From: Candidatus Amesbacteria bacterium GW2011_GWB1_47_19
GTDB lineage: Bacteria; Patescibacteriota; Microgenomatia; CAZETR01; Amesbacteraceae
Length of the DNA: 64,000 nt
Assembly (NCBI GenBank): GCA_001002325.1
Contig: LCNZ01000002.1
Location: forward strand, 7,093 to 71,092
Direction: 5' to 3'
The notes under the pieces were generated by a model. It saw nothing but the letters and a program-made list of their open reading frames with translations. It searched no databases and was not told where the DNA came from. This document shows positions 1 to 64,000 of the stretch, one piece after another; position 1 is the stretch's first letter, and each line of letters begins with the position of its first letter. A program made the position numbers and the translations under genes.

Positions 1-423
1 ACCGATCATTCCCGCCACAGTCAACGCTTCAGGCAGATGAAACTGGGACAAATACCACAGCCATGGGTTGGTTGTGGCTATCCATACCGGCCACCAACTC
101 CTTACGGCTTCGCCTCGGCTCAATCGGTATATTCCCCATACCAAACCAACCTGAATCAGCCAACCCAGGATCCTCAGCTGCATCTCTCCGGTACCAAACG
201 ATTTAAACCAGACCGCCTCCACAGCCAGCGGTACCACAAATAAGCGGTAGCCGTTATCCCGGAGTACCATTTCCAGAGACGGACTGTCGGTTTTTCCCAA
301 TGAGTACGCTGCGTAGCCAAATTCGGCCTGTTCGACGCTCATCCCGATAGGATTCTTCAAGGCCAAAGCCAGATTCAGAAGTAGTATCAGGGCAACCCCG
401 GTTATTTCAATTTTTTTCTTCAT
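1..423 (-). CDS. N-terminal 141 aa of a membrane protein that runs off the 5' edge; divergent PMT_2/GT39-like paralog
   Basis: Reverse-complement of 1-423 is an open frame starting ATG at 423 (MKKKIEITGVALILLLNLALALKNPIGMSVEQAEFGYAAYSLGKT...), not in the supplied ORF track because it is edge-truncated. It has a TM helix then ..P.G....EQAEFGYAAYSL, matching the P.G...DEAALGYNAYSL loop-1 motif of the four downstream paralogs but with DE changed to EQ. Confidence 0.5.
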   Translation of the reverse strand, partial: MKKKIEITGVALILLLNLALALKNPIGMSVEQAEFGYAAYSLGKTDSPSLEMVLRDNGYRLFVVPLAVEAVWFKSFGTGEMQLRILGWLIQVGLVWGIYRLSRGEAVRSWWPVWIATTNPWLWYLSQFHLPEALTVAGMIG

Positions 424-449
424 GCTCCTGAATATAATATAATGAATTT

Positions 450-2051
450 GTGAAAACCGCGGTTTTGACGGGAATATTGCTCCTGGGACTGATTTTACGG
501 ACCGTTTGGTTGGATAAATATCCTCCGGGGCTGACTCCGGACGAGGCGGCATTTGGTTACAATGCCTACTCCGTCCTCCAAACCGGCAGTGACGAATGGG
601 GTACCCCCTGGTATAGGTTGGCTTTTACCAACCTCAGGTCCTTTGGTGATTATAAACTGCCTATGTATGTTTTTTTGGCCTTGTTCCCGGTCAAGATATT
701 CGGATTAAGCGAATTTGCCGTTCGATTGCCGAATGCTTTGATCGGTACCTTAGCCGTTGCCGCTGTCTATCTTCTGGGGAGTAAACTCTTTTCTGCAAAA
801 ACCGCCCTCTGGGCAGCATTTTTATTAGCTGTCTCCCCCTGGCATATCCAGCTGTCCCGTGGTGCCTTCGAAGCCAATCTGGTCACTTTTTTTCTCCCGC
901 TGGGGATATATCTGTTTCTGACCGGATCCGCTGTCTGGTCGGCGCTGGTACTGGGCCTTAATTTTTATTCATATCATTCTGCCCGGCTGCTGACCCCTTT
1001 GATTGTGATAATTCTTTTGATGTTTAAACTACCGGGGAAAATTAATCGCTTAATTTTCATAGCCGCCCTTTTTATCGTGACCGTCCCCGGCCTTGTGTCA
1101 ATGACTTCCGGAAGCATAGCCCGCGTTTCCGATATTGGCATAACCGGCCCTACCGATAATTGGCGATCTGTTGCCGACAGACGTTTTACCGCCCGCCAAT
1201 CCGGCCTACCGGATGGACTGGCCCGGCTGATATCCAACAAAGTCCAAACAGTGACTTCGCTTTATATACATAATTATCTGACGTATTTTTCTGGACAATT
1301 CCTGTTTACATCCGGTGCGAGTGAAGGGACTTATGGCATGCTACCGGGTAGGGGAGTACTTTATATAATTGAATTACCATTGTTGCTATATTTCCTGGTA
1401 CTACTTATTCGCAAACCGTCCCCGCAAATGTATTTGCTACTGTTGCTGCTTCTTATCTCCCCTATACCCGCCGCTCTGACAAAGGGACCGGGTTATGCCG
1501 CCAACCGGGCAGTTGTAATGCTTCCGTTTTTAATTCTCGCCATCTCATTCGGACTAACTCACCTTATAAAAAACAAACTCCTTACACTAATTACAATAAC
1601 TGTTTACTCCCTTTGTCTTCTCTTTTTCCTGGCTAATTATCTCTATCTCTCTCCCTCTCAAATTGCCCCGGCCATGCTTTATGGACGCCGGGAGGCACTG
1701 ACGAGAGTCGCCTCAATATCAGGTGGATTGGAGGAAGTACGAATCAGCCGATCCTTGTCAGAACCGCACATTTATCTGGCATTTTTCTCTCGTTTCTCGC
1801 CGGCGGAATATCAAATGTATTCTCGGAACTGGCCGGACCCGACGACTTTGGGTCTGAAATTTCTGGATCAGGTGGACGGGTACTCTTTAGATAAATATCG
1901 TTTCGGGAACCTGAATTTTGAGGCTCCGGTAGACCATTCGGTTCTTTATGTCGGCTTACCTTCAGACTTTCCCCCGGACTACCCCGGACTTTTCCGTATT
2001 GATTATCCGGACGGTCGCCCGGCGGTGACCGTAGCCGCAAAAAATCCATGA
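450..2051 (+). CDS. PMT_2/ArnT-like GT-C membrane glycosyltransferase (GT39/GT83 type), paralog 1
   Basis: GTG start. N-terminal TM, then LDKYPPGLTPDEAAFGYNAYSVLQTGSDEWG...FGDYKLP...GLSEFAVRLP, the diagnostic DE loop of protein-O-mannosyltransferase/ArnT family; about 11 predicted TM segments; C-terminal soluble domain. Confidence 0.8.
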   Translation: MKTAVLTGILLLGLILRTVWLDKYPPGLTPDEAAFGYNAYSVLQTGSDEWGTPWYRLAFTNLRSFGDYKLPMYVFLALFPVKIFGLSEFAVRLPNALIGTLAVAAVYLLGSKLFSAKTALWAAFLLAVSPWHIQLSRGAFEANLVTFFLPLGIYLFLTGSAVWSALVLGLNFYSYHSARLLTPLIVIILLMFKLPGKINRLIFIAALFIVTVPGLVSMTSGSIARVSDIGITGPTDNWRSVADRRFTARQSGLPDGLARLISNKVQTVTSLYIHNYLTYFSGQFLFTSGASEGTYGMLPGRGVLYIIELPLLLYFLVLLIRKPSPQMYLLLLLLLISPIPAALTKGPGYAANRAVVMLPFLILAISFGLTHLIKNKLLTLITITVYSLCLLFFLANYLYLSPSQIAPAMLYGRREALTRVASISGGLEEVRISRSLSEPHIYLAFFSRFSPAEYQMYSRNWPDPTTLGLKFLDQVDGYSLDKYRFGNLNFEAPVDHSVLYVGLPSDFPPDYPGLFRIDYPDGRPAVTVAAKNP

Positions 2052-3688
2052 AATATTTTCTCTTAATCTTACTACTTTGTCTCCCTGCGTTCGTGCAGAT
2101 GCTGAGGTTTGGTTTATATACTACCCACGACTTTCATTTCTTCCGTCAGTACGAATTTGATAAGTGTATATCCGATCATGTTTTCCCCTGCCGCTGGTCA
2201 GCGAATGCCGGTATGGGTTACGGAGAGCCGGTTTTCAATTTTTACGGCCAACTGCCTTATGTTTTCGGCCAGATATTCAAATATTTAGGTTTTTCAGTGA
2301 TTGATTCGGTAAAAACGGTTTTCATTCTCTCGCTGGTTCTTTCTTCTGTATTCATGTATCTGCTGTCCCGGCGGTTCTGGGGTCATTTGGGGGGTCTGAT
2401 ATCGGCTTTATTTTATGTTTTTGCTCCCTACCGGGCAATAGATGTCTGGGTTCGCGGTGCTCTGCCGGAAAGTCTGGCATTTGTGTTTTTCCCCCTCATC
2501 CTTCTGTCTCTGGAAAAGTATTTACATCGTCCCCGCCTATTACCGCTTTTAGAGTTCTCGTTATCCTGGGCGGGTTTAGTACTGGTCCACAATCTGTCCG
2601 CCTTTATGTTTTTTCCTTTTGTGATTATCTGGTGGCTATGGCGATCCCGGCAGTCGCGGGGTATCATGTCGGGAATTCCGCTTCTGGCCGCCTTCATCTT
2701 TTCGCTCTTTCTTTCGGCTTTTTACCTGCTCCCGGTCATATTTGAAAGCCGCTTAACGACTGTCAACGACACCACCCGGATTTATTACGAGTACGGTTTG
2801 CACTTTACTTCTTTAAAACAGTTGTTCGTTTCCCGTTTCTGGGGCTATGGCGGGTCAGTTTGGGGACTGAATGATACTATGAGCTTTTCCGCCGGCCACC
2901 TTCACTGGATACTTGCAGTCATTATCGGTTTATATTTGCTCATGAAACGTCAAATCAAATCACCATTAACTAATAACTATTTACTGTTCACCGGTCTCGG
3001 TATCTTCGCCCTTTTTTTAACTCACGGCAAATCCGATTTCATCTGGCGCCTGGTTCCTTATATCCGTTTCGTCCAGTTTCCCTGGCGATTTTTAACCATC
3101 ACTGCCCTTTTCCTCGCCCTTGCCAGCGGGAGTATCGCCCGCATCCTTCCCAATAAATTTATCCCCTATATACTACTACTGTTACTGTTGACCAATTTTA
3201 TGTTCTTCCGTCCGGATATCTGGCGTCCGATTTCTGATTCAGTCCAATTTTCCGGTGTTTTGTGGGACGAGCAGCGAGCCTCATCTCTCCAGGATTACTG
3301 GCCGAAATCGGCTCCGCTGAAGCCTCGGGAATTTGCCCCCTCTCTGCCGGAGTTCACAACGGGGCAGGGTCAGGTGGCAGTATTTCATAAATCTTCCCAC
3401 TCAGCTCAGGCGCAGATTACCGTTTCTTCCCCCCGGGCGGAAGTCCTTTTTCCCATTGTCTATTTTCCGGGATGGACAGCCCAAATTTCCGGCCGCAGGT
3501 TTCGGGTCATACCCTCGGGAGATTTAGGCAGGATTACCGTTCTTTTACCTGCCGGTAGTTACCTGGTACAGCTGAGGTTTACCGATACCCCCGTTCGGCG
3601 TATCGGCAATTTAGTAAGTCTGGTCTCCGGAATATTATTGCTGTCCGCCTTGCTGATTATCAAAAAACCGTCTTATGCAAAAAGTTAA
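2048..3688 (+). CDS. Polytopic membrane protein with C-terminal beta-rich extracytoplasmic domain (GT-C-like; YfhO/PTPS-related-like, family uncertain)
   Basis: ATGA overlap with the upstream gene. Many hydrophobic helices; N-terminal loop YTTHDFHFFRQYEF...AGMGYGEPVFNFYGQLPY; C-terminal about 120 aa hydrophilic domain followed by a final TM. No WWDYG OST motif. Confidence 0.55.
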   Translation: MKYFLLILLLCLPAFVQMLRFGLYTTHDFHFFRQYEFDKCISDHVFPCRWSANAGMGYGEPVFNFYGQLPYVFGQIFKYLGFSVIDSVKTVFILSLVLSSVFMYLLSRRFWGHLGGLISALFYVFAPYRAIDVWVRGALPESLAFVFFPLILLSLEKYLHRPRLLPLLEFSLSWAGLVLVHNLSAFMFFPFVIIWWLWRSRQSRGIMSGIPLLAAFIFSLFLSAFYLLPVIFESRLTTVNDTTRIYYEYGLHFTSLKQLFVSRFWGYGGSVWGLNDTMSFSAGHLHWILAVIIGLYLLMKRQIKSPLTNNYLLFTGLGIFALFLTHGKSDFIWRLVPYIRFVQFPWRFLTITALFLALASGSIARILPNKFIPYILLLLLLTNFMFFRPDIWRPISDSVQFSGVLWDEQRASSLQDYWPKSAPLKPREFAPSLPEFTTGQGQVAVFHKSSHSAQAQITVSSPRAEVLFPIVYFPGWTAQISGRRFRVIPSGDLGRITVLLPAGSYLVQLRFTDTPVRRIGNLVSLVSGILLLSALLIIKKPSYAKS

Positions 3689-5279
3689 AAATTGGCCATA
3701 TCTGCTTCTGTTATTGGTCATTTCCGGTCTTTTTTTACGCCTGGTCAGGCTTCCGGATTTCCCGCCCGGTCTTAATTGGGACGAAGCCAGTCTGGGATAT
3801 TCCGCCTATTCACTGTTAAAAACCGGTCATGACGAATGGGGATCTGCATCCCCTTTAATTTTTCGCGCTTTCGGGGATTACAAACTCCCCAGCTACATCT
3901 ACCTGGATGTTGTCCCCGTCGCATTTTTGGGATTAAATCCGTCGGGAGTGAGATTGCCGTCGGTTCTGGCAGGTACCTGCTTGATTCTCATGTCTTTCCT
4001 GTTGGCTCGGCAAATTTTTAAAGACGATCGGATAGCCTTGCTGACGGCACTGCTGGTGGCCATCGAACCGTGGTCGCTGTTTCTTTCCCGGGTGGGCCTT
4101 GAAGCCAATCTGGCAGCATTTCTTATTTGTGCCGGGATTGTTTTTCTGTTGCGGCACAAAATCACACCTGGCCTGTTGTTTTTGGGTTTATCTGTCTGGA
4201 CATACAACAGCGCCCGTCTCTTCACCCCTCTGTTTCTGTTGGCATACTGGGTCATCCGCCGTCCCAAACTATCAACGGTAAACTATTTACTATTAACTGT
4301 ATTTTTCGTACCCATGCTTCTTCAGCTTTTTTCCCCGTCCGGCCAAGCCCGGTACAAATGGGTGTCCTTAATCGACCAGGGGGCAATCAACCGCATCAAT
4401 GAACTTCGTCTGAATTCGGATTTGCCCGAGACCCTTTCCCGAATTTTCTTTAATAAAGTATCCTATTCACTATTCACTTTTACTGTTAATTACCTAAAAC
4501 ATTTCTCCCCGGATTTTCTCTTTTTTTCCGGCGGTAGCAACTACCAGTTTAATATCCCCGGATATGGGTTACTTTCGTTAATAAACCTCCCCTTCTTTTA
4601 TCTGGGCCTCCTGCACTTACCCGGATTTCACGATCGTAAAAATCGCGTCATTTTTCCCCTCTTAGCCTGGCTATTCCTGGCTCCCATTCCCGCCAGTTTG
4701 ACTCGGGACGCTCCTCATACCCTGCGGGCTATTACCCTGCTGCCTTTACCAATGCTTATATCGGCTTTCGGTGCAGTTAAGATTTGGGATAGATTAAAAA
4801 CTCATTTGCCGAATTATTTTCCCATTGTCTGGCTTGTCTGTTTAATCCTAAGTCTGGAATACTACACGACTACTGTCACTCCGGCTTACCGTACTGCTTA
4901 TTCCTGGTCCTGGCAATACGGCTATCGGGACATTGTTGCATATGTCAGAAACCATTATTCCGAATACGACCGGGTCATAGTTAGCAAAAGATATGGAGAA
5001 CCGCATATCTTTTTCCTGTTTTATTGGCCCTGGGACCCGGTTGCCTACCGGACAGATCCTGATCTGATCCGATATTTTAAGAGCGATTGGTATTGGGTGG
5101 ATAGTTTTGCCAAATTCAGGTTCGTCAACGATTGGGATTTGGTGGAATACGTAAGTCAGCCCCATCCAGGTCAAAAGTATTTAACCGTTTCCTCGCCGGA
5201 CAACGCCGCCCCCGGTACACCCCTCGGTCAAATTAATTTCCTCGACGGTCAGCCGGCTTTCATAATTAAAGAAAACTGA
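3675..5279 (+). CDS. PMT_2/ArnT-like GT-C glycosyltransferase, paralog 2
   Basis: LPDFPPGLNWDEASLGYSAYSLLKTGHDEWG...FGDYKLP motif; same architecture as 450-2051; overlaps the upstream gene by 14 bp. Confidence 0.8.
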   Translation: MQKVKNWPYLLLLLVISGLFLRLVRLPDFPPGLNWDEASLGYSAYSLLKTGHDEWGSASPLIFRAFGDYKLPSYIYLDVVPVAFLGLNPSGVRLPSVLAGTCLILMSFLLARQIFKDDRIALLTALLVAIEPWSLFLSRVGLEANLAAFLICAGIVFLLRHKITPGLLFLGLSVWTYNSARLFTPLFLLAYWVIRRPKLSTVNYLLLTVFFVPMLLQLFSPSGQARYKWVSLIDQGAINRINELRLNSDLPETLSRIFFNKVSYSLFTFTVNYLKHFSPDFLFFSGGSNYQFNIPGYGLLSLINLPFFYLGLLHLPGFHDRKNRVIFPLLAWLFLAPIPASLTRDAPHTLRAITLLPLPMLISAFGAVKIWDRLKTHLPNYFPIVWLVCLILSLEYYTTTVTPAYRTAYSWSWQYGYRDIVAYVRNHYSEYDRVIVSKRYGEPHIFFLFYWPWDPVAYRTDPDLIRYFKSDWYWVDSFAKFRFVNDWDLVEYVSQPHPGQKYLTVSSPDNAAPGTPLGQINFLDGQPAFIIKEN

Positions 5280-5280
5280 A

Positions 5281-6918
5281 ATGGGTAGAAAAATATTATT
5301 AATTTCGGTTCTTATTCTTGGACTTGGCCTCAGGCTGATTCGGCTGGATAACCGTCCGGCAGGATTCACTTGGGACGAAGCGGCCTTGGGTTACAACGCT
5401 TATTCGCTTTTATTCACCGGCAAGGACGAACACGCGGCATTAATGCCCCTGGTTTTTAAATCCTTCGGTGATTACAAACCCGGTTTATATATTTATTTCT
5501 CAGTTCCCGCGGTAGCCATCTTTGGCCTTAACGAATTTGCCACCCGTCTGCCCTCCGCTATCTTCGGCACCCTGCTTGTCCTCGTTGTTTATTTGATAAG
5601 TAAAGAATTAGAAAGTTTATTGAAAATTGAAAATTGTAAATTGAAAATTGCACCAGCAGCAGCCTTGCTGATGGCGGTAAACCCCTGGGCTATCCACTTC
5701 TCCCGCGGGGCCTGGGAAGCCAACCTTGCGCTGTTTCTTACCACTTTGGGTGTCACGTTTTTTATCCGGGGAATCAAAAATAATTCTCATTTCCCCTATC
5801 TCATTTCTGCTTTCTTCCTCGGTCTGACACTCTGGTCCTACCAGGGGGCCAAACTTTTCACTCCGCTGCTACTTTTATCCCTGATCGTCGTTTACCGGCC
5901 TGTTATTAGTATAAAAAAAATGCTCTTACCATTGGGACTATTTCTTGTATTACTATTTCCGATTCTGGCAGGATTCGGAAACCAATCCGGCCGACTCAAA
6001 GTCTTCAGCGTATTTTCCTATACCCGCACCCGGGAATATGTATCCCAAATACTTACCCAGGATCAAACAACCCGTCCCGGGTGGGCTTATTACCTGTATC
6101 ACACTGAACTGCTGGATCAGTTACGCGGCATCGCCCAAAGATATCTTAACCATCTGTCACCCCGATTTTTGTTCGTGGACGGCGACTGGTCTTCGCTTCG
6201 CCACTCCACTCCCTACCAGGGATATCTTTTTTACCCCCAACTATTAATTCTTTTGATGGGTTTATACCTGCTGATAAAAAACTTTTCCCATCCATTGTCA
6301 AAGTTTGTCATCATATGGTTGTTTTTGGCACCGGTCCCGGCCGCCCTTTCCCGGGATATTGTTTCCGGCGTCAGATCTCTGCCTTTGATCATTCCCTTAA
6401 CAATCATTTCCGGCATCGGCTTAGCCAAAATTTCCCGTTATTCAACTCTGTTACTCTGTTTCTCTGTAACTCTGTTACTTTTCTTTATCTATTTCCTGGA
6501 TCTCTATTTCATCCATTCGCCTCAGTTTACCGCCCGGGACTGGCTATACCCTTATCGCCCTGCATTTTCGCTCATCAGGCCCTATCTCTCATCATACCGC
6601 CGCATTTATTTCACCGATCAACTCGGCCAGCCCTATATTTTCTATCTTTTTTACAACCAGGTATCCCCCGCATACTACCAGTCCCAAAATGCCTTCATCC
6701 CCAATCCCTCAGGAGACGTCGGTCGGGTCGACCGGGTTGATAATCTGGTATTTGCCCCGGTTTACTGGCCTTCTTTGCGTTACGAAAGTTCTGCGTTGTT
6801 CATCGGAGGCCAGTATGAATTACCTGAATCAGACCTAAACCAGCCCGGCCTGGAGCGGATTGCCGAGATTACTTACCCCAACGGAGATCCGGCACTCAGG
6901 ATTGTCGGTATACCATGA
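5281..6918 (+). CDS. PMT_2/ArnT-like GT-C glycosyltransferase, paralog 3
   Basis: LDNRPAGFTWDEAALGYNAYSLLFTGKDEH...FGDYKP motif; carries an in-frame AT-rich heptamer repeat insert (ESLLKIENCKLKIA) in the loop after TM3. Confidence 0.8.
   Translation: MGRKILLISVLILGLGLRLIRLDNRPAGFTWDEAALGYNAYSLLFTGKDEHAALMPLVFKSFGDYKPGLYIYFSVPAVAIFGLNEFATRLPSAIFGTLLVLVVYLISKELESLLKIENCKLKIAPAAALLMAVNPWAIHFSRGAWEANLALFLTTLGVTFFIRGIKNNSHFPYLISAFFLGLTLWSYQGAKLFTPLLLLSLIVVYRPVISIKKMLLPLGLFLVLLFPILAGFGNQSGRLKVFSVFSYTRTREYVSQILTQDQTTRPGWAYYLYHTELLDQLRGIAQRYLNHLSPRFLFVDGDWSSLRHSTPYQGYLFYPQLLILLMGLYLLIKNFSHPLSKFVIIWLFLAPVPAALSRDIVSGVRSLPLIIPLTIISGIGLAKISRYSTLLLCFSVTLLLFFIYFLDLYFIHSPQFTARDWLYPYRPAFSLIRPYLSSYRRIYFTDQLGQPYIFYLFYNQVSPAYYQSQNAFIPNPSGDVGRVDRVDNLVFAPVYWPSLRYESSALFIGGQYELPESDLNQPGLERIAEITYPNGDPALRIVGIP
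5620..5650. repeat. In-frame AT-rich heptamer tandem repeat (TTGAAAA/GAAAATT, about 4.4 copies) inside PMT_2 paralog 3
   Basis: ttgaaaattgaaaattgtaaattgaaaattg read directly; encodes LKIENCKLKI, which is absent from paralogs 1 and 2. Confidence 0.8.
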
Positions 6919-8570: not shown

Positions 8571-8571
8571 T

Positions 8572-8991
8572 ATGAATCTAGTTGAATTAGCCAAAGTGAT
8601 ATTTACTGGCGATAAAGGGACTATAATTATTCAGGATCGTACAGGACATAGCAAGATAGGGGAAAAATTGGGATTCTTTGGTGGTGGTATTAAACAGGAT
8701 GAAACTCCGGAACAGGCACTCCGTCGCGAATTACTCGAAGAATTAAGATATTCCCCTGAAATATTAAATTTCTTCATTAAGCAAAATACTATCTGCAAAA
8801 TTACCGGGAAATTTTACGGTTGGAAAGTCATTGAGCATATATTTTTATCTCCCATAACTCCAGAACTATTGGGATCACCATGTCTTGAAGGAGGAGGTAT
8901 TAAAGAATTATTACTTGCAGATGCACTCAAACTTCCGGATTTTTGGGAAGGGGACCATAAAATCTTAGAAATTTTGTATGAAAAAGATTAA
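8572..8991 (+). CDS. Nudix hydrolase (possibly NDP-sugar hydrolase)
   Basis: Nudix box G-x5-E-x7-REuxEEx: GGGIKQDETPEQALRRELLEELRY. The track ORF starts at a TTG at 8557; the in-frame ATG at 8572 (MNLVELAK) is preferred. Confidence 0.7.
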   Translation: MNLVELAKVIFTGDKGTIIIQDRTGHSKIGEKLGFFGGGIKQDETPEQALRRELLEELRYSPEILNFFIKQNTICKITGKFYGWKVIEHIFLSPITPELLGSPCLEGGGIKELLLADALKLPDFWEGDHKILEILYEKD

Positions 8992-56230: not shown

Positions 56231-57479
56231 ATCTCTGATTCAAACCGCCACTTTCCGTCAATCGGTCATTACCCTGGGCAGTACCGTTACCAGCGGAGGC
56301 TTGGGAGCCCTGTTTTTCTTTATCCTCGCCCGGTTTTTGGGTAGTCAGCAATACGGTGCCTTCTCCACCGCCTGTGTTTTGATTATTATGCTGTCTTCCG
56401 TTATGGATCTGGGAACCAGCCAGGGATTGGTAAAATTTTCCCGCAAGTATGCCGGGGATCCCGAAAAAAGCGAGGCGGTCATCAAATCAACTTTACTCAT
56501 TAAACTCGTCTCGGGATCAGTTATTTCAATGATTCTCTTGTTTTTTGCAGTTCCCCTGGCCGGCAATATTTTTCACCATCCGGAATTGGCCCCCTATTTT
56601 TCCGTCTCCGGTCTGGGGATTATGGGATCATTGCTGTTTTCTTTCGCTTATTCCCTGGCCCAGTCCCGGGGTTTATATATTCTCTGGGGAAGCATTTTTG
56701 TCTGGCCGAATTTTCTCAGGTTGTTGGCACTTCTGGTTCTCATCCGGTTCGGATGGCTTACGGGGATATCCGCACTCTGGCTCTATATAATCACCCCTTT
56801 TGTCGCCTTCATCGGCAGCCTGTTTTTTACGGACCGGAAATTCATTTCCGTATCGTTTCAGCCGGGGTTAATCGGCGAATTTTTCAGTTTTAACAAGTGG
56901 ATTACTCTGACATCAGTCATATCCACCGTCGGCTCCAGGGTGGAAGCATTATTAACCGCCGGTTTTTTGACCCTTTCAGCCACCGGCAATTACGCTCTGG
57001 CCGTGCAGATGGTTACCCTGGTTCCCCAGCTTAGCTCCGCTTTCGGGGCGGTTACTACACCAAAATTTGCCTCATTTACCAATATCCGGGATAACCGCCG
57101 TTATCTTGTCAAAACCACTCTGCTCACCATGCTGGCTGCCGCCGGTGTGATCCTATGCCTTATCCCCGCCGCCTGGATTTTAATCAGATTGATCGGAAGC
57201 CAATATCAACAGGCTTTTACTCCCTTTTTACTACTTTTAGGGGGTATGGCTTTATTTCTGGCCTCGTCTCCCTTACGGGACAGTCTTACCTATTATTTCG
57301 GCAGACCCGGATTTTTTGCTCTTTGGAGTTTGATTGCCCTGCTTATTACCGTCTGTCTTTCGCTCTGGTTGATCCCGGCGCTGGGTATTATCGGATCGGG
57401 CGCGGTGGTTCTGATAATTCAGATTCTGGGGGTGTTAGCCGCCTGGATTTATTACCGCTGGATTTCCCGACACCAATGA
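56214..57479 (+). CDS. Wzx/MOP-family polysaccharide flippase-like membrane protein (third)
   Basis: 421 aa, 12-14 TM helices. Confidence 0.6.
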   Translation: MHHQLKSLIQTATFRQSVITLGSTVTSGGLGALFFFILARFLGSQQYGAFSTACVLIIMLSSVMDLGTSQGLVKFSRKYAGDPEKSEAVIKSTLLIKLVSGSVISMILLFFAVPLAGNIFHHPELAPYFSVSGLGIMGSLLFSFAYSLAQSRGLYILWGSIFVWPNFLRLLALLVLIRFGWLTGISALWLYIITPFVAFIGSLFFTDRKFISVSFQPGLIGEFFSFNKWITLTSVISTVGSRVEALLTAGFLTLSATGNYALAVQMVTLVPQLSSAFGAVTTPKFASFTNIRDNRRYLVKTTLLTMLAAAGVILCLIPAAWILIRLIGSQYQQAFTPFLLLLGGMALFLASSPLRDSLTYYFGRPGFFALWSLIALLITVCLSLWLIPALGIIGSGAVVLIIQILGVLAAWIYYRWISRHQ

Positions 57480-58309
57480 CCGGACCTTCGCTGACCGTCC
57501 ATTGTCTGGTAAAAAACGAACAGCGCTGGATCTGGTTTGCCCTCAAGTCAATATTAGATTATGCGGACGAGATATTGGTTTGGGACACAGGCTCCACGGA
57601 CCGGACTGTGGAAACAGTGAATGGTTTAAACTCTCCCAAAATTAAATTTAAACAGATGGCCGTATCATCCCCGGAAGAACACACAGCTCTCCGCCAGCAG
57701 ATGTTAAAGGCTACACATTCGGATTGGTTTTTTATTCTGGACGGGGATGAAGTCTGGTGGAGAGAATCGGTTAGACAGGTCAGGGAAGCCATTAAAAATA
57801 ATCCCGGTATGGCGGGAATTATCACCCCTTTTTATAACGCAGTCGGTGATGTGTTTCACCATCAAACTCCTGACGCAATTCATTATCGCATCCACGAGTT
57901 TTTCGGGGGTTTCACCATCCGGGCCATCAACCGCCGCCTTCCGGGTTTGCACCTGGCCAATCCCCACGGCCGCCAGGAATACCGCACCCGCGGGATTGCC
58001 CTGCAGAATCTACCCCGGCACCGCTTGTTGTTTGTTGATGCTCCGTATCTTCATCTGACTCATTTGCACCGGTCCGTGGGCAGGTCCCACGATAGGTCAA
58101 CCTTAAAGAGGGTAATGAAGTATCGTTATGAATTGGGGACAAACTTCCCCCATGATTTTGTATTCCCTGACGTTTTTTATCTTACCCGGTCGGATACTGC
58201 CCCTTCCCCTTTCATCCGCCGTTCGGTATTCTACACTACAATTGCCGCTGCCATCACCCCTCTCAGATGGATAAAATCCCGGGTTACTCCTCACCGCGAA
58301 AGCTATTGA
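57476..58309 (+). CDS. GT2-family glycosyltransferase (WaaE/KdtX-like)
   Basis: LTVHCLVKNEQRWIW...ILVWDTGSTDRTVE...FILDGDE; resembles 8978-9778 and 60707-61477. The track ORF (57155) overlaps the flippase; trimmed to the ATG in the ATGA overlap. Confidence 0.7.
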   Translation: MTGPSLTVHCLVKNEQRWIWFALKSILDYADEILVWDTGSTDRTVETVNGLNSPKIKFKQMAVSSPEEHTALRQQMLKATHSDWFFILDGDEVWWRESVRQVREAIKNNPGMAGIITPFYNAVGDVFHHQTPDAIHYRIHEFFGGFTIRAINRRLPGLHLANPHGRQEYRTRGIALQNLPRHRLLFVDAPYLHLTHLHRSVGRSHDRSTLKRVMKYRYELGTNFPHDFVFPDVFYLTRSDTAPSPFIRRSVFYTTIAAAITPLRWIKSRVTPHRESY

Positions 58310-58313
58310 CCTT

Positions 58314-59057
58314 GTGAATACTCAGTCTCAGTATCCCGGACACCATATTTTGGATGATGCCGGACCCATGGCGGGTTACTCCCGCTGGGTTATGAATATG
58401 TTCAAAGATTATTGGGGGAAAGATATTTTGGAAATCGGCAGCGGCATCGGTACCATGTCCGCCCTGTTGCCTGCCGGCGCATCCGTTACCCTTACCGAAA
58501 CAGATCCGGCTTATATTTCCGTACTCAGGAAAAAATTTGATTTTCCGGTCTATCGCTGGGATGCCCAAAATCCTCCTCCGCGGCCATTGTCGTCATCCGG
58601 TTTTGACGTGGTTTTTACAGCCAACGTTTTAGAACACATTCCCGACCACCGGGCGGTACTAAAAAGTATTTTTAAACTGTTACGCCCCGGTGGCCGGCTT
58701 TTAATTTACGTCCCGGCCAAACAAATAATTTTCGGCACCCTGGACCAAGCATTAGGTCATTGCCGGCGATATGAAAAAGATGAGTTTATCAAATTGCTTT
58801 CGGATCTTAAATTTAGCATCATTACAGCCCGCTACTGCAATCTGCCGGGATTTTTCGGTTGGTGGGTGGTAGGGAAAATTTTGCGATTACACCGCTCACG
58901 GTTACTCGCCAAAGTATTTGATATTATTTTTACCCCATGGCTGTACTTTGAAGAACGGCTCAGCCTGCCATTCGGTCAGAACCTGATAGTTGTGGCTGCC
59001 AAACCAGACCATACTTCATCACACACCCCAGGGCTGTCATACCATCCTTCCAGTTGA
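58314..59057 (+). CDS. Class I SAM-dependent methyltransferase
   Basis: ILEIGSGIGTMSALL motif I; VVFTANVLEHIPD; LLRPGGRLLIYVP. GTG start; an internal Met start is possible. Confidence 0.7.
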   Translation: MNTQSQYPGHHILDDAGPMAGYSRWVMNMFKDYWGKDILEIGSGIGTMSALLPAGASVTLTETDPAYISVLRKKFDFPVYRWDAQNPPPRPLSSSGFDVVFTANVLEHIPDHRAVLKSIFKLLRPGGRLLIYVPAKQIIFGTLDQALGHCRRYEKDEFIKLLSDLKFSIITARYCNLPGFFGWWVVGKILRLHRSRLLAKVFDIIFTPWLYFEERLSLPFGQNLIVVAAKPDHTSSHTPGLSYHPSS

Positions 59058-59697
59058 TTTTCTTGCCCTCATCATATCCCCTGCCGGAATAACTGATACC
59101 CACTTCATAAATTTTATAACCCATTCTGGAGACTTTAATGGTAAATTCCGGCTCAAATCCGAAACGGTTTTCCGCTATGGTAATGTTTTTAGCCACTTCT
59201 CTGGTAAAGGCTTTATAACAGGTTTCCATATCCGTGAAATTCATGTTGGTGACGGCATTGACCAGCAGTGTCAGCAGTTTATTTCCCACCATATGCCAGA
59301 AATACAATACTCGGTGCGGCCGGAAAGAAATGAATCTCGAGCCGAATACGACATCCGCTTTTCCCTCCTTGATAGGCTCAACTAATAGTTTATATTCATT
59401 CGGGTCGTATTCCAGGTCTGCGTCCTGAATGACGACTATGTCTCCCGTGATTAATTTCAACCCGTCTCTGATTGCCGCCCCCTTACCCTGATTTTTGGCT
59501 TTAGTTATCAGTTTTATTTTTTTGTCCCGCAGCTTTTTCAATTCTCTGTCAGTACCGTCGGTTGAAGCATCATCTACAATAATCACCTCCTTCAGTATCC
59601 CGTCGACTTTAGCCCTCAGCACCCGGTTTACCAGTTCTATCACCGTGCCGACTTCATTGTATACTGGAATTATTACCGACAGCTTCATTGCAGGCAA
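58960..59697 (-). CDS. Dpm1-like GT2 polyprenol-phosphate glycosyltransferase
   Basis: MKLSVIIPVYNEVGTV...VIIVDDASTDGT...IVVIQDADLEYDPNEY; convergent overlap with the upstream methyltransferase. Confidence 0.8.
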   Translation of the reverse strand: MPAMKLSVIIPVYNEVGTVIELVNRVLRAKVDGILKEVIIVDDASTDGTDRELKKLRDKKIKLITKAKNQGKGAAIRDGLKLITGDIVVIQDADLEYDPNEYKLLVEPIKEGKADVVFGSRFISFRPHRVLYFWHMVGNKLLTLLVNAVTNMNFTDMETCYKAFTREVAKNITIAENRFGFEPEFTIKVSRMGYKIYEVGISYSGRGYDEGKKINWKDGMTALGCVMKYGLVWQPQLSGSDRMAG

Positions 59698-59708: not shown

Positions 59709-60719
59709 ATGAAAATTTCTTTTTTAAGTGTTGGTAGCGGTCAGGTTAATCGTGGGGCTGAGTCGTTTGTTCATTATCTCGCCAACCACCTCTCGCGGCT
59801 CGATCATCAGATCACCGTACATCAGAACGGTGACCCCCTGATCAACTGTACTTATCGTACCGAATCGTACCACCTGGATTCATTTTCTATCCGCGATTTT
59901 ACCGCCCAAGTTCTCAAAAACATCGGTAGTCCGGACATTCTGATTCCCGTAAATGGTCGTTGGCAAAGCGGGCTTTGCCGCCTGTGGGCTTTCAGAAATA
60001 AAACTAAAATGGTTATATCTGGGCAATCCGGACTCGGTTTGGATGACCGGATAAATCTGTATACCTGTCCTGACGCTTTTGTTGCCCTCTCGAATTATCA
60101 ATTAAATTGGGCCAAAAGGATAAACCCCTTCGTCCGGGTGGTCAGAATTCCGAATGGAGTAGATCCGGAAATTTTTCATCCCTCTGCCGAAAAAGTGAAT
60201 ATTGAATTACCCCGACCTATAATCTTGTGTGTCAGCGCCTTGGAAGAAAATAAACGCCTGCATTTGGCTGTAAAGGCAGTAGCCGGTATGCGCCGGGGGT
60301 CACTGTTAATTATCGGTCGCGGCAGTCTGATAAATCCGCTTACGAGTTTGGGAATGCGTCTGCTGCCGGGTCGTTTTTCAATCATGTCATTGCCCCAACA
60401 TTTAATGCCCGGGGTGTTTACCGCGGCTGACTTATTTACTTATCCCACGGTAGCCTGGGAGTCATTTGGTATCGCTTTGTTGGAAGCCATGGCTTCCGGA
60501 TTGGCGATAGTAGCCAACAACGACCCAATCCGCAGGGAAATAGTTGGTGATGCCGGCTTGTTCGCCGATCCCTCGGATTCCGGAGCATACACCTCTACCC
60601 TGAACCAGGCGCTGTCTTATCGGTGGGGTAAAAAACCTCTTCTGCGGGCTCAAAAATATGCCTGGAGTAAAATTGTCCTGGATTACGATAAACTATTCAA
60701 AACTATATGCTATCGATAA
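59709..60719 (+). CDS. GT4-family (GT-B) glycosyltransferase
   Basis: C-terminal TYPTVAWESFGIALLEAMASGLAIVANN motif. Confidence 0.7.
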   Translation: MKISFLSVGSGQVNRGAESFVHYLANHLSRLDHQITVHQNGDPLINCTYRTESYHLDSFSIRDFTAQVLKNIGSPDILIPVNGRWQSGLCRLWAFRNKTKMVISGQSGLGLDDRINLYTCPDAFVALSNYQLNWAKRINPFVRVVRIPNGVDPEIFHPSAEKVNIELPRPIILCVSALEENKRLHLAVKAVAGMRRGSLLIIGRGSLINPLTSLGMRLLPGRFSIMSLPQHLMPGVFTAADLFTYPTVAWESFGIALLEAMASGLAIVANNDPIRREIVGDAGLFADPSDSGAYTSTLNQALSYRWGKKPLLRAQKYAWSKIVLDYDKLFKTICYR

Positions 60720-61477
60720 GTATCATCGCAAAAAACGCTTCCCGGACTCTGCCTGCATGTATTCAAAGCACCCGGGGATTGTGTGACGATGTGGTCGTGG
60801 TCGTAGACTCTTCAACTTGGGATGACACCGTCAAAACGGCTTCCGGTCTCGGCGCCAGGGTATATGTCAGGAAATTTGACAACTTTTCCTCCCAAAAAAA
60901 TTTCGCCGTTTCCAAATGCCGTTACCGCTGGATATTGGCGTTGGATGCAGATGAAACAGTCACGCCTCGGCTGGCGGAAGAAATAATGCAAGTGTTGCCC
61001 GGCACCCGGTACTCGGCATTTTCAATTCCCCGCATAAATTATATTTTTGGCCGGCCGATTTGTCATACAAATTGGTCTCCCGAAACAGACCGGCACATTT
61101 GGTTGTTTGACAAAACCAAAGCAGGTTGGTCCTCCGCTGTTCACGAACAGGTCCTGGTAACCGGTCCGGTGGGTCGGCTCAAAAATCCTAAAACCCACTT
61201 AAACTATCAGTCGGTGGAGCAATTCATCGCCAAAATGAACCAATATACCAGCCTCGAAATAAATTCCGGTAAACGCTCTTTGACTGCCCGCCTGATCCGC
61301 TCCCACTGGTTGAGAGTCTTTTTTCAGCCTAAGTGGAAATTTATCCGGCATTATTTTCTTTACTTGGGTTTTCTCGACGGCTGGCACGGTCTGTTCCTGA
61401 GTTATCTTATGGCCATCTACGGATTAACTTTAACCGTCAAGTCATGGCAAAAACAAACAGGTATTTACCGATCCTGA
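60707..61477 (+). CDS. GT2-family glycosyltransferase (WaaE/KdtX-like)
   Basis: LSISIIAKNASRTL...VVVVDSSTWDDTV...LALDADE. Confidence 0.75.
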   Translation: MLSISIIAKNASRTLPACIQSTRGLCDDVVVVVDSSTWDDTVKTASGLGARVYVRKFDNFSSQKNFAVSKCRYRWILALDADETVTPRLAEEIMQVLPGTRYSAFSIPRINYIFGRPICHTNWSPETDRHIWLFDKTKAGWSSAVHEQVLVTGPVGRLKNPKTHLNYQSVEQFIAKMNQYTSLEINSGKRSLTARLIRSHWLRVFFQPKWKFIRHYFLYLGFLDGWHGLFLSYLMAIYGLTLTVKSWQKQTGIYRS

Positions 61478-62832
61478 TCATCCTCCTTTTGGGATTGGGA
61501 CTGAGGCTGATCAACATCAATCAAAGCTTTTGGTTGGATGAAGCCAGCCAGGCTAATCTTTCCTCGCTGCCTCTGCATCAGATATGGTATGGAAGGGGAG
61601 GGGACTTCCATCCGCCCCTATTTTACTTTTTGGTCCATACCTGGCTTATATTTGGCCGTTCAGAAATTTGGCTCAGAACTTTACCCCTCACTTTCGGGAT
61701 AGCCAATATTTTCATTATTTACCTGTTGGCCAGGGATTTATTTCCTCAAATGGAATCAAAAATTAGATATCTGTCGGCATTATTGTTAGCCATATCACCG
61801 TTTCATATTTATTATTCCCAGGAATTACGGATGTATTCGTTGCTCTGTCTGTTGGGAACAATGTCTATGTACTTTTTCTTCCGCCGTCGCTATCTGCTCC
61901 TGAGCGTATTCAATACCCTGCTTTTATATACTCATTACTCAGCCATATTCCTTATCGCAACCCAGCTAATTTACGTAGTTATGTATTCCCGAAAAGAATT
62001 AAAATCATTCACTTTCTCATTTCTCCTTTCCGCTTTCTCGTATCTGCCTTGGTTGCCCCAATTCTATCGCCAGCTGAATTCGGGACTTAACATCGACACT
62101 TATTTGCCGGGGTGGCGTCAGGTACTCAGTATTTCTCCCCTCAAAGCTTTTCCGGTAATAGTATTCAAACTGGTCGCCGGGCGTATCAGTTTTATCTCCA
62201 GAATCGTATATGGGATATATATAGTTTTTGTCTTCACCGTCACCTTTCTGGCATTGGTCATATCACCCCGTCCCAAACGCCAGCTGGTTATCTGGGTCTT
62301 TTTTCCCGTGATACTGCTGCTTTTGACGTCACTGGCACTGCCTCAAAATCAGCCCTTCAGGGTAATTTATGTTTTACCGGGTTTTATCTTACTTTTTGCC
62401 CGGGCTTGCATCCGCTATCCCAAGTTGATTGTGACTCTTGTTTGTTACATTTTTATCGTGGGCGATATTGCTTACTTCACCCGTCCTCGTCTCCAGCGGG
62501 AAAACTGGCGTGATGCATCTGCTTTTTTATCCCGACAGCAGACAGCCGTCGTGGTAAAATTTTCGGATAGATTCGCTCCTCTGGCCTGGTATGCTCCGGA
62601 TTTACCCGTGGTTGGGCCGGTATCGACTTTTCCCGCTGCATACCAACCGGTTTTTGAGAAACTCGGTCCGGCGTTAGCCACCTCAACCCGGGTTTATCTG
62701 CTGCAATACTTGACAGATCTCACAGACCCCCACAGGGAAGTAGACCGGGTTATAGAAAACCTGGGTTTCAGCCAAACCAAAATTCATGATTTTTCGGGTG
62801 TTGGTTTTATTTACGAATATTCCCGGCAATGA
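61444..62832 (+). CDS. PMT_2/ArnT-like GT-C membrane glycosyltransferase (sixth family member in window)
   Basis: MAKTNRYLPILIILLLGLGLRLININQSFWLDEASQ...: TM then WLDEA loop-1 motif. The track ORF start (61333) overlaps the upstream GT2; trimmed to the internal ATG. Confidence 0.7.
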   Translation: MAKTNRYLPILIILLLGLGLRLININQSFWLDEASQANLSSLPLHQIWYGRGGDFHPPLFYFLVHTWLIFGRSEIWLRTLPLTFGIANIFIIYLLARDLFPQMESKIRYLSALLLAISPFHIYYSQELRMYSLLCLLGTMSMYFFFRRRYLLLSVFNTLLLYTHYSAIFLIATQLIYVVMYSRKELKSFTFSFLLSAFSYLPWLPQFYRQLNSGLNIDTYLPGWRQVLSISPLKAFPVIVFKLVAGRISFISRIVYGIYIVFVFTVTFLALVISPRPKRQLVIWVFFPVILLLLTSLALPQNQPFRVIYVLPGFILLFARACIRYPKLIVTLVCYIFIVGDIAYFTRPRLQRENWRDASAFLSRQQTAVVVKFSDRFAPLAWYAPDLPVVGPVSTFPAAYQPVFEKLGPALATSTRVYLLQYLTDLTDPHREVDRVIENLGFSQTKIHDFSGVGFIYEYSRQ

Positions 62833-64000
62833 TCTTCATCCTTCTGCAGCTTTTACATGCCGGTATTCTTCTTCGTCTCGAGTCCTTTATCTATCCCGAA
62901 TTCTTTGTCTATCCTTACCTGACGCTATCCGGATTGGTCCCGTACCGCCAGATAATAGATCAGCATTTTCCGGGTTTATTTTTCCTGCCCGTCAATTTCG
63001 CTTCGCTCGGATTCAACACGCCGGTATCCTTCCGGACACTTCTCATACTTATGGTGCTGTTTCAATCTGCCCTGATCGCTGTAATTGCCCGCAGAGTCTC
63101 CCGCAGCCGGTTGGCTGCCGTTTTCTCGGTAATTGCTTATACTGTCTGGCAGCCGGTTTTTTTCGGCAATCACTTGTGGTTGGAATCTTTTATTTCACCT
63201 CTTTCGTTGTCTGCATATTTTTTCTGGACGGGACATAATTTATTTTGGTCGGGCTTATTCCTCGGTCTGGCAGTTTTATTCAAACAATCACTTCTATTAC
63301 CGCTCGTTTGTCTGACTGCGTACCTGCTTTTCAGGCATCGTCTGGTGGAAGCAATCAGGTTTTTTTCAGGTGGTTTAGCGCCATTGTTTTTGATTTCTGT
63401 TTACTTCTCCGCCCGGGGATTGTTCCCCGATTTTTTCTTTTGGACGGTAATGTTTAATCTGGTTTATGCCGTCAGGTCTTTTTCGTTGCCTTCATTGTCT
63501 ATCATATTGCAGCTCGTCCTGCCTGTAGTGTTGGTTATTTCATCAATGATCCTGGTCAAACCCCGGCACCGCCTGATGGGATTGGCAGTCTGGGGACTGT
63601 TGCTCATCCCCGGAGGTCTGTCCCGTTTTGATTTTACCCGCATCCAGGCTGCCGTACCCTTTCTTTCATTACTGACGGGAATCCTCTTAGCCTATCTGAT
63701 TTCAAAAAGAAAATGGTCGGCACTCAGCCTGATCGCTCTTTGTCTTGGTTTTTATATCGGTTTATTTTATCTGCGCCAGGCTAATTGGGGGCAGTACCGG
63801 TTTTTTAATAATGAAACTTTGATTCTGGCGGAAAAAATAAAAACTTTGTCGCAGCCGGGAGATATAATTTTCCTGTTGGGAACCCAACCTCATTTATATT
63901 TTTTAACACGGACGCTACCCCCCGGTAATTTCTTTGCTTATCAGTTACCCTGGTACTTGCCTCTGACTACAAACCGGACTTTGTTTACTCTGGCTGACGA
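62829..64000 (+). CDS. Polytopic membrane protein running off the 3' edge (GT-C/DUF2029-like?)
   Basis: Open frame from the ATG in an ATGA overlap at 62829 to the window end (at least 390 aa, no stop), many hydrophobic helices; not in the supplied track because it is edge-truncated. Confidence 0.6.
   Translation, partial: MIFILLQLLHAGILLRLESFIYPEFFVYPYLTLSGLVPYRQIIDQHFPGLFFLPVNFASLGFNTPVSFRTLLILMVLFQSALIAVIARRVSRSRLAAVFSVIAYTVWQPVFFGNHLWLESFISPLSLSAYFFWTGHNLFWSGLFLGLAVLFKQSLLLPLVCLTAYLLFRHRLVEAIRFFSGGLAPLFLISVYFSARGLFPDFFFWTVMFNLVYAVRSFSLPSLSIILQLVLPVVLVISSMILVKPRHRLMGLAVWGLLLIPGGLSRFDFTRIQAAVPFLSLLTGILLAYLISKRKWSALSLIALCLGFYIGLFYLRQANWGQYRFFNNETLILAEKIKTLSQPGDIIFLLGTQPHLYFLTRTLPPGNFFAYQLPWYLPLTTNRTLFTLAD

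Follow-up and report, generated by a model that had tools for sequence, protein, structure and literature searches.

Two proteins of the DUF2304 family, the streptococcal GacJ and the mycobacterial Rv3632, bind and strongly stimulate the GlcNAc-P-undecaprenol synthase GacI and the GalNAc-P-polyprenol synthase PpgS, respectively, and the streptococcal system also includes GacK, a member of the Wzx family, and GacL, a glycosyltransferase (GT) of the GT-C type (bioRxiv 10.1101/180810). The Wzy_C family includes polymerases, WaaL ligases and the PglL/PilO protein O-oligosaccharyltransferases (O-OTases) (PMC3643930). In the candidate phyla radiation (CPR, Patescibacteria) the cell envelope is almost unstudied; our literature search returned no paper with both "candidate phyla radiation" and "GT-C", and a recent perspective on the Patescibacteria makes no mention of glycans. 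Here we describe a glycan locus of Candidatus Amesbacteria bacterium GW2011_GWB1_47_19, an uncultured, ultra-small member of a groundwater population. A stretch of 64,000 nucleotides (contig LCNZ01000002.1, positions 7,093 to 71,092), in the following called the window, forms the central part of this locus. The whole locus extends over about 87 kb, from about -9.0 to +77.5 kb in window coordinates, and comprises approximately 80 genes. An earlier note, which was made from the letters of the window, had presumed a CPR-like lineage, in agreement with the source names of the proteins (Candidatus Amesbacteria GW2011_GWB1_47_19, GW2011_GWA1_44_24 and RIFOXYB1_FULL_47_13; Microgenomates) and with homologues that are assigned to the Microgenomates group or to Woese-, Davies-, Roizman- and Gottesmanbacteria. 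We consider it probable that the locus represents an envelope glycan super-locus, in which an assembly pathway of the Wzx/Wzy_C type, initiated by a phosphoglycosyltransferase (PGT), is combined with a large elaboration arm of GT-C enzymes and polyprenyl-phosphate-sugar synthases.

The earlier note had seen neither an initiating PGT nor Wzz nor a clear O-antigen ligase, and had taken this lack to set the locus apart from Wzy-type systems. We defined 61 main open reading frames (ORFs) in the window and scanned 60 of them against Pfam and subsets against NCBIfam (the scan covered ORFs of at least 100 amino acids (aa), except for one of 103 aa at 31521-31832). Indeed, none of the 60 matches Glycos_transf_4, Bac_transf, Wzz or Wzy_C (E <= 0.01). 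For the window the statement therefore stands; for the locus it does not. The window corresponds to positions 147,164-211,163 of scaffold_18 (276,202 bp) of ENA ERZ28564339; the two overlaps that were compared (12,051 and 14,292 bases) are identical, and contig DNMO01000006.1 of GCA_003488165.1 is identical to the window over the 12,051-base overlap. According to the Pfam families on record for scaffold_18 (212,007-232,654), the missing parts follow downstream. A Wzy_C-family protein of 435 aa (d6) is encoded on the plus strand 3.4 kb past the window end, at 67,391-68,698 in extrapolated window coordinates, and a PGT of the PglC/WbaP type (Bac_transf, 215 aa) 10.8 kb past it, at 74,844-75,491 (+, extrapolated), with matches to WbaP (3e-40) and PglC (1e-25) in the PDB and to the NCBIfam model EPS_sugtrans (236 bits). 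Since the scaffold of the window carries both genes further downstream in the same orientation, the missing PGT is an effect of the window edge. From this we conclude that the headline anomaly of the earlier note, the missing initiating enzyme, is not real, and that the locus is not independent of a PGT but probably a PGT-initiated system of the Wzx/Wzy_C type with an elaboration arm. The set that the note itself had named as contrary to its view, a PGT, Wzy and Wzz just outside the window, is largely present, namely the PGT and Wzy_C but not Wzz.

The PGT was first seen in a syntenic sister species, traced via a 90% cluster to scaffold_18 and confirmed there by direct look-up. Scaffold_18 contains a gap of 100 N inside the GT2 gene that follows gene d8, and both NCBI contigs end at this position. 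A mis-assembly between the window and the PGT is nevertheless unlikely, since the gap is bridged by a gap-free JGI contig with 99-100% identity to the scaffold in this stretch, and since separate contigs carry the gene order to the PGT. Further assembly breaks were seen past the window, where two contigs break inside the manC gene and the contig of RIFOXYB1_FULL_47_13 is without a call for the GT4 gene d2; the repeated breaks suggest that this stretch of the locus differs between strains.

The gene order around the PGT is conserved. All 29 related metagenome loci for which the flanks are complete have the Wzy_C gene directly upstream of the orthologue of d7, a GT-C protein of the PMT_2 family (490 aa; 68,688-70,160, +, extrapolated), and the PGT and a DUF4012 gene are found within 10 kb; five further Amesbacteria-like genomes show the same core gene order. 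Two additional proteins, the conserved d5 (165 aa), which is encoded directly before d6, and the DUF4012 protein (662 aa, one transmembrane (TM) segment; 75,494-77,482, +, extrapolated), accompany the Wzy_C, PMT_2 and PGT genes in 28-29 of the 29 related loci. Neither of them showed similarity to solved structures or NCBIfam models; DUF4012 has been noted as a family enriched in CPR and Gram-positive bacteria (PMC6744442). The d6 protein matched no NCBIfam model, a PDB sequence search with it gave nothing meaningful, and its Wzy_C membership does not separate a polymerase from a ligase or an O-OTase. Apart from MraY in the dcw cluster, only one PGT is present in the approximately 105 kb examined, and a gene for an acceptor protein, a pilin or an S-layer was not seen in this region. 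No Wzz or other polysaccharide co-polymerase (PCP) was found among the scanned window ORFs, and the records for the flanks (-9.5 to +85 kb) list none.

At the base of the elaboration arm are three GT2 enzymes, g14, g48 and g57, in which the earlier note had already recognised Dpm1/GtrB-like transferases. By their Pfam, NCBIfam and PDB matches and by a DAD motif, which is present in all three, they are confirmed at the level of sequence class as Dpm1/GtrB/ArnC-type synthases. Their GT2 domains score 71.6-120.4 bits against PF00535; the best relatives with a solved structure are the Pyrococcus furiosus Dol-P-Man synthase (5mlz), ArnC and GtrB (sll0501), and the top NCBIfam models are AglJ, PpgS, ArnC, PgfS and Dol-P-hexose transferase, whereas the remaining four GT2 genes of the window (g07, g37, g55, g59) match EpsE, TuaG or SunS types. 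In g14 (17283-18587, +) a methyltransferase-like N-terminal domain is fused to a Dpm1/ArnC-like GT2 domain (NCBIfam AglJ, 83 bits; PDB 5mlz, 3e-15). The GacI/PpgS-like g48 (50284-50958, -) has PpgS as its top NCBIfam match (84 bits) and ArnC, dolichol-phosphate mannose synthase (DPMS) and GtrB as PDB matches, and g57 (58960-59697, -) is Dpm1/AglJ-like (NCBIfam AglJ, 127 bits; PDB 5mlz, 5e-21 over residues 3-212). The DUF2304-like partner that had been noticed next to one synthase is g47 (49946-50290, -), a small membrane protein of the GacJ/Rv3632 type (PF10066, E=1.4e-16), which is located immediately downstream of g48 in the same orientation and overlaps it by 7 nucleotides. The N-terminal domain of g14 comprises about 190 aa and its similarity to methyltransferases is weak (Methyltransf_23, E=4e-4); to our knowledge, a methyltransferase fusion has not been described for polyprenyl-phosphate-sugar synthases.

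Each of the three synthases is located within two to four genes of a Wzx flippase and a GT-C protein, in line with the logic of Dpm1-like synthase plus GT-C transferase that the earlier note had put forward. Triad A consists of g12 and g13 (GT-C), g14 (synthase) and g16 (Wzx; 19122-20441, +; Polysacc_synt, 77.1 bits), triad B of g48 with its partner g47, g51 (GT-C) and g52 (Wzx; 53697-54971, +; Polysacc_synt_3 and Polysacc_synt), and triad C of g54 (Wzx; 56214-57479, +; Polysacc_synt, 71 bits), g57 (synthase) and g60 (GT-C). Streptococci show the same grouping with GacI/J, GacK and GacL. All three Wzx/MOP candidates of the earlier note thus pass Polysacc_synt, with 62-77 bits and 9-11 TM segments according to a crude hydropathy scan, the same scan from which all TM counts of window proteins given here derive. 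No small flippase of the GtrA or ArnE/F type was detected among the ORFs of at least 100 aa. Overlapping start and stop codons across g13-g16, g51-g55 and g58-d1 indicate operon-like packing. Between g52 and g54 lies g53 (54956-56230, +), an FAD-dependent oxidoreductase (Pfam Amino_oxidase; NCBIfam PRK07233, 421 bits), which is phytoene-desaturase-like and overlaps with its start and stop both flanking Wzx genes. Its substrate could be a lipid-linked sugar or the polyprenol, and we identified no counterpart in known glycan loci.

The earlier note had listed six PMT_2/ArnT-like and at least five other GT-C-like proteins. We arrive at 11 complete polytopic GT-C candidates in the window, nine of them solid and two (g13 and g40) probable, and two more that are cut by the window ends (1-423, - and 62829-64000, +). 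The candidates have 6-13 TM segments, and all of them are deposited in public records as "hypothetical protein". Seven ORFs (g01, g03, g04, g05, g12, g51 and g60) pass the Pfam gathering scores of PMT_2 (PF13231) or PMT (PF02366), with 27.9-37.8 bits against cutoffs of 26.1 and 22.7. Four of these form a tandem array at the left end of the window, namely g01 (450-2051, +; PMT_2 37.6 and PMT 29.4 bits), g03 (3675-5279, +; PMT 30.7 bits; paralogy e-64 to e-70), g04 (5281-6918, +; PMT_2 27.9 bits; paralogy up to e-87) and g05 (6915-8570, +; PMT_2 31.5 bits). Together with the upstream genes u3 and u7 they constitute an old family of tandem paralogues, here called famA, with identities of 28-34% and phmmer E-values of e-40 to e-87. 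A divergent paralogue of this array, the 529-aa u8, reaches into the window with its 5' part (1-423, -; scaffold_18 gene call; famA profile E=2.4e-15), the remainder being located upstream. An Asp-Glu pair (D31-E32 in g01) directly after the first TM segment (TM1) is invariant in the six-member array and is also present in g60 (61444-62832, +, ORF listed as 61333-62832; PMT_2 28.3 bits; famA profile 1.8e-16). Based on the positive-inside rule, the loop that carries it would face outward.

To these are added g12 (14312-15793, -; PMT_2 37.8 bits), the short g51 (52522-53700, +; PMT_2 29.6 bits), whose start is called at either 52729 or 52522, and g09 (10842-11993, +), a PIG-V-like protein that matches Mannosyl_trans2 (PF04188, 33.1 bits against a cutoff of 22.4) over profile positions 52-189 of 443. 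The remaining complete candidates, g02, g13 and g40, have no Pfam or NCBIfam match and were linked to GT-C through custom profiles. For g02 (2048-3688, +) this link is reciprocal: a PMT_2-type profile built from 73 orthologues of d7 matches g02 at E=3.4e-10, and the g02-family profile matches d7 at 1.8e-79, which places g02 in the d7 subfamily. The 440-aa polytopic d1, of which the window contains 62829-64000 (+) according to the gene call, has no Pfam match and a weak link to GT-C (famB profile, E=7.6e-3; the d1-family profile matches u4 at 1.3e-5). We also noted a NUDIX hydrolase gene (8557-8991) with a GC content at third codon positions (GC3) of 0.27 inside the GT-C array, for which GC3 is approximately 0.5; it may be a separate insertion.

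A structural model of one paralogue, g01, was generated with AlphaFold2 from an alignment of seven paralogue sequences of the window (pLDDT 67, pTM 0.71). A Foldseek search of the PDB with this model gave GT-C enzymes for all of the 31 best matches, among them AglB, STT3, ArnT, ALG12, Pmt4, AftB and ALG9; AftA, EmbB and catalytic subunits of oligosaccharyltransferases (OST) also occur among the fold matches. The significant matches (E <= 0.001) have TM-scores of 0.37-0.48. Matches with E < 0.1 are exclusively GT-C, and transporters appear at a probability of approximately 0.1. The model thus gives the array a predicted GT-C fold and supports the earlier view that the candidates are GT-C enzymes and not transporters; for the array, we rejected transporters on the basis of these matches.

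The two probable candidates were examined by profile-profile comparison. With g13 (15806-17290, +), hhalign probabilities were 67-76% against PMT_2-type profiles, 76% (E=2e-5) against the d7 family and 1% against the Wzy_C family; a single-sequence AlphaFold model was unusable (pLDDT 44) and was not taken to the fold search. The 669-aa polytopic g40 (41181-43190, -) belongs to a rare family, with 97 representatives (E <= 1e-3) among 1.84e9 protein cluster representatives and members of approximately 690 aa. Among 58 members scanned, 10 matched DUF6798, four PMT_2 and one a TMEM260-like family, and the comparison of g40 with famA gave a probability of 52% (E=1.5e-4), which points to the GT-C clan. 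PDB sequence searches with g13, g40 and the g40-family profile gave nothing meaningful. Residues D139, R244, E410, R414, R423 and Q499 are invariant in the g40 family, and g40 has the lowest GC content of all genes in the window (0.30). We also considered g13 or g40 as a Wzy polymerase, and found no similarity to the Wzy_C profile (hhalign 1% for g13); both lean towards GT-C, and a polymerase outside Wzy_C is still conceivable.

The profile searches upheld the families named in the earlier note, in which the cytoplasmic side of the locus had been under-counted: the window encodes nine cytoplasmic GT2/GT4 transferases and a block of approximately 24 genes for nucleotide sugars and modification. 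The transferases comprise the GT2 g07 and the GT4 g08 (8978-10845, +; Glycos_transf_2 84.9 and Glycos_transf_1 83.1 bits; g07 is not Dpm1-like in NCBIfam), a GT2 and a GT4 within g35-g39 (36460-41195, +), which encode in this order an FkbM methyltransferase, an unassigned protein of 376 aa, the GT2 (EpsE/TuaG-like in NCBIfam), the GT4 and a methyltransferase (Pfam), and two GT4 within g41-g46 (43190-49943; GT4, methyltransferase, AsnB-type amidotransferase, two methyltransferases, GT4; Pfam). The GT2 g55 (277 aa as called) is followed by the methyltransferase g56 (57476-59057, +; Pfam, gene call, NCBIfam), and g58 (GT4) by g59 (GT2; 59709-61477, +; Pfam). Eight further cytoplasmic GT genes lie outside the window, two of them upstream and six downstream, the latter on either side of the Wzy_C gene and all ahead of the PGT. 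As modifiers, the locus encodes six methyltransferases, two hexapeptide acetyltransferases, one of which is g15 (18587-19120, +; Pfam Hexapep), and one AsnB-type amidotransferase.

The sugar block proper, g17-g34 (20490-36443; Pfam, NCBIfam), contains GmhA-, HddA- and GmhB-like heptose genes, nucleotidyltransferases, a transaldolase, a ribulose-5-phosphate (Ru5P) epimerase, HxlB, an NDP-sugar dehydrogenase, short-chain dehydrogenases/reductases (SDRs) and a KdsC-like phosphatase. The GmhA/HddA/GmhB-like genes together with a nucleotidyltransferase suggest that NDP-heptose may be made, with all scores below the equivalog cutoffs. Before the block lie the epimerase g10 and the CapD/PseB-like 4,6-dehydratase g11 (12018-14326, +; Pfam; NCBIfam PseB, 152 bits), and a further GmhA-like isomerase (g49) lies next to an SDR dehydratase/epimerase (g50) at 51038-52704. 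A 522-aa fusion at 34355-35923, which joins an N-terminal sugar-1-phosphate nucleotidyltransferase-like domain to a C-terminal APH/choline-kinase-like domain, adjoins the Ru5P 3-epimerase, HxlB and KdsC-like phosphatase genes and may belong to an unusual activated-sugar pathway. The region 30198-32075 is poorly coding; it contains a 239-aa ORF without credible family, the unscanned 103-aa ORF and approximately 0.8 kb without ORFs of at least 100 aa, and has no Rfam match. In the window as a whole, Rfam and tRNA scans found neither a tRNA nor an Rfam family.

From g10 to g50, the window is occupied by an island of approximately 40 kb (~12,000-52,500) with a GC content of 0.368 and a GC3 of 0.36, whereas either flank of the locus has 0.467 and 0.50, and the housekeeping genes downstream have a GC content of 0.464. 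The step is sharp, from 0.47 to 0.37 at about 12 kb and back to 0.47 at about 52 kb. Of the three synthases the island carries two, together with one Wzx, g12, g13, g40 and the heptose genes, and it is present in 24 of 24 examined contigs that carry g40. O-antigen and capsule loci have similar low-GC centres, and the pattern suggests that the island was acquired laterally or constitutes a serotype-like variable region.

Outside the window, the downstream part (all on the plus strand) begins after d1 with two GT4 genes and a WcaF-like acetyltransferase gene, followed by d5, d6 and d7, and continues with GT4, GT2, GT4 and GT4 genes and a ManC-like mannose-1-phosphate guanylyltransferase gene to the PGT and DUF4012. 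Thereafter follow RecO, a class-II tRNA synthetase and the dcw cluster (MraZ, RsmH, a penicillin-binding protein, MraY, FtsW); the adjacency of the glycan locus, RecO-tRNA synthetase and dcw is common to the related genomes examined. Upstream, the locus extends to about -9.0 kb with two GT2 genes, three more array members and three unassigned polytopic proteins, beyond which unrelated DUF4430 and DUF6580 genes are found. Strand switches split the locus into blocks.

Taken together, these data fit a pathway with two converging lines. The central block would make nucleotide sugars, heptose possibly among them, and the small PglC/WbaP-type PGT at the downstream end would prime undecaprenyl phosphate. 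Because a PGT, approximately 17 cytoplasmic GTs, modifiers, Wzx proteins and a Wzy_C protein are present, we infer one or more undecaprenyl-PP-linked oligosaccharides, which the GT2/GT4 enzymes would assemble, the methyl-, acetyl- and amidotransferases modify and the Wzx-family flippases export, before the Wzy_C-family protein polymerises them or passes them to an acceptor. In parallel, the three Dpm1/GtrB/ArnC-class synthases, one of them presumably activated by its GacJ-type DUF2304 partner, would make polyprenyl-P-monosaccharides. By analogy with known GT-C enzymes, at least 11-13 GT-C proteins may use these lipid-linked donors outside the membrane and form branches or extensions on the glycan, or glycosylate proteins, the GT-C paralogues outside the triads probably drawing on the same donor pools. 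The identities of donors and acceptors, the cargo of each Wzx and the number of polymers, one or several, are what we infer here.

Several observations weigh against this interpretation. The functions are predicted from sequence for every gene. The PMT_2 scores are only 2-12 bits above the Pfam cutoffs, and g13 and g40 are tied to GT-C only by weak profile matches. No synthase reaches an NCBIfam equivalog cutoff (best scores of 83-127 bits against cutoffs of 325-529), so that none of the three can be given a specific name or sugar. For g14 and g57, neither a TM segment was predicted nor a partner found, in contrast to GtrB, ArnC and archaeal DPMS; human DPM1 and Ppm1-D2-like enzymes are peripheral, and the two proteins would be compatible with this type. 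The closeness of synthase, Wzx and GT-C genes is partly expected by chance in so dense a locus. In addition, the Wzx genes of the window are present in only 0-2 of the 29 related core loci and are thus missing from most of them, so that the link between flippases and PGT block is not conserved, and the low-GC centre may be an independently acquired, functionally separate pathway.

We therefore weighed other explanations against a PGT-initiated polymer with an elaboration arm. One is that the locus mainly serves protein O-glycosylation, with the PMT-type GT-C proteins as O-mannosyltransferases fed by Ppm1-like synthases and the Wzy_C protein as an O-OTase of the PglL/PilO type, which moves a PglC-initiated oligosaccharide to pilins or surface proteins. 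This would explain the PF02366 matches of g01 and g03, the small, PglC-like size of the PGT and its PDB match to PglC (1e-25), and the presence of Pmt4 and OST catalytic subunits among the Foldseek matches of the g01 model, in which, however, AglB, STT3 and ArnT rank above Pmt4. The DE motif of the array also resembles the loop-1 motif that we take to be typical of the PMT family. PglL O-OTases share the Wzy_C/WaaL family with polymerases and ligases (PMC3643930), and since the family spans all three activities, protein glycosylation keeps a place among the readings; by the same token, Wzy_C membership cannot tell these activities apart, and d6 is without an NCBIfam match. No acceptor, pilin or S-layer gene accompanies the locus in the region examined, and approximately 17 cytoplasmic GTs together with a heptose pathway fit a complex polymer and not short O-glycans. 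On balance we regard this explanation as unlikely.

Somewhat more unlikely still, in our view, is that two or three independent pathways lie side by side, namely a conserved native-GC PGT/Wzy_C polymer, a laterally acquired low-GC heptose glycan with its own Wzx, and a GT-C array that acts on another substrate such as a lipoglycan or a teichoic-acid-like polymer. The three Wzx genes, the sharp GC steps at about 12 and 52 kb, the strand switches and the retention of the core module in relatives without the Wzx genes of the window would all be expected from such a juxtaposition. Separate pathways would, however, each need an initiator, whereas a single PGT (MraY aside) is found in the approximately 105 kb examined, and the island is stable in all 24 examined contigs with g40; moreover, this explanation differs from a combined pathway mostly in degree. 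The third possibility, that the GT-C candidates are transporters or other membrane proteins and no more than unrelated neighbours of an ordinary O-antigen-like cluster, draws on the three candidates without Pfam or NCBIfam match (g02, g13, g40) and on PMT_2 scores near the threshold. It is largely refuted, and rejected for the array, by seven ORFs above the curated PMT_2/PMT cutoffs and one above that of PIG-V, the link of g02 to the PMT_2 subfamily (E=3e-10), the invariant acidic DE motif after TM1 and a g01 model whose matches at E < 0.1 are GT-C only, with transporters at a probability of about 0.1; we hold it to be very improbable.

If the PGT-initiated pathway with its elaboration arm is taken as a basis, the locus has a bearing on CPR biology. 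Approximately 80 genes, at least 13 GT-Cs, three lipid-P-sugar synthases and three flippases suggest a heavy investment of reduced genomes in surface glycans, with relevance for attachment in episymbiosis, for phage receptors and for recognition by hosts or by the immune system. The three triads offer a natural test bed for the question of whether Wzx-family proteins such as GacK flip polyprenyl-P-monosaccharides. As a tentative and rather doubtful extension, Amesbacteria and perhaps many Microgenomates might devote about one tenth of a genome of approximately 1 Mb to a mycobacteria-like extracytoplasmic glycan line, with a PGT-primed backbone, a dozen or more GT-Cs and three polyprenyl-P-sugar pools, each with its own Wzx. 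If this were true, it would provide direct genomic support for Wzx proteins flipping lipid-P-monosaccharides and would imply a complex, heavily methylated heteroglycan coat, which could mediate host attachment in CPR bacteria.

Every component of the locus belongs to a known family, and what is unusual is the scale, with three synthases and three flippases beside at least 13 solid GT-C genes, their concentration within approximately 87 kb, and the lineage, for which we found no earlier description of any of this. The logic joins two known schemes, assembly of the Wzx/Wzy type and a lipid-P-sugar/GT-C arm that is GacIJKL-like or mycobacterial-like. With classical Wzx/Wzy loci for O-antigen, capsule or exopolysaccharide and with the pgl loci of Neisseria and Campylobacter, it shares the Bac_transf PGT, GT2/GT4 enzymes, Wzx, Wzy_C, a nucleotide-sugar block and a low-GC centre. 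Unlike these, it has no detected Wzz/PCP, three flippases, a large arm of GT-C and Dpm1-like enzymes, a terminal DUF4012 gene and the 165-aa partner d5. The ArnC/ArnT and GtrA/B/C systems resemble it in that the three synthases have ArnC and GtrB among their best structural relatives and g01 has ArnT among its top fold matches. In contrast to ArnC and GtrB, g14 and g57 are without the two C-terminal TM helices, and the acceptors here, unlike that of ArnC/ArnT, cannot be lipid A; we know of no lipopolysaccharide acceptor in CPR bacteria.

The mycobacterial Ppm1 and PpgS-Rv3632 synthases, with their battery of GT-C enzymes (PimE, MptA-C, EmbA-C, AftA-D, Pmt) for lipomannan/lipoarabinomannan, arabinogalactan and protein O-mannosylation, provide a precedent for many GT-Cs that build and branch envelope glycans outside the membrane from polyprenyl-P-sugars. 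Among the NCBIfam models, g48 matches best that of PpgS, an enzyme with a DUF2304 partner, and AftB, AftA and EmbB are among the fold matches of g01. The mycobacterial genes are scattered over a 4.4-Mb genome, whereas those described here are concentrated in one locus of a genome that we presume to be about 1 Mb in size; there is no arabinose (DprE/UbiA) pathway, and the GT-Cs, with 390-670 aa, are without the large C-terminal domains of the Emb type. The streptococcal GacI/J/K/L system, to which EpaI-type systems and the lactococcal cell wall polysaccharide can be added, combines a GT2 synthase and an adjacent DUF2304 activator, as in g48/g47, with a Wzx-family protein and a GT-C close by, as in g52 and g51, and the backbone of the group A carbohydrate (GAC) is likewise started separately by a PGT on undecaprenyl phosphate. 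That backbone depends on an ABC transporter and the WecA-type GacO, whereas the backbone here appears to be of the Wzx/Wzy_C type with a PglC/WbaP-type PGT. Compared with the single synthase/Wzx/GT-C set and the one or two GT-C genes of GacI/J/K/L, the present locus contains three such sets and at least 11 GT-C genes, with low identity to characterised members (84 bits for the PpgS model against a cutoff of 370) and in a CPR lineage.

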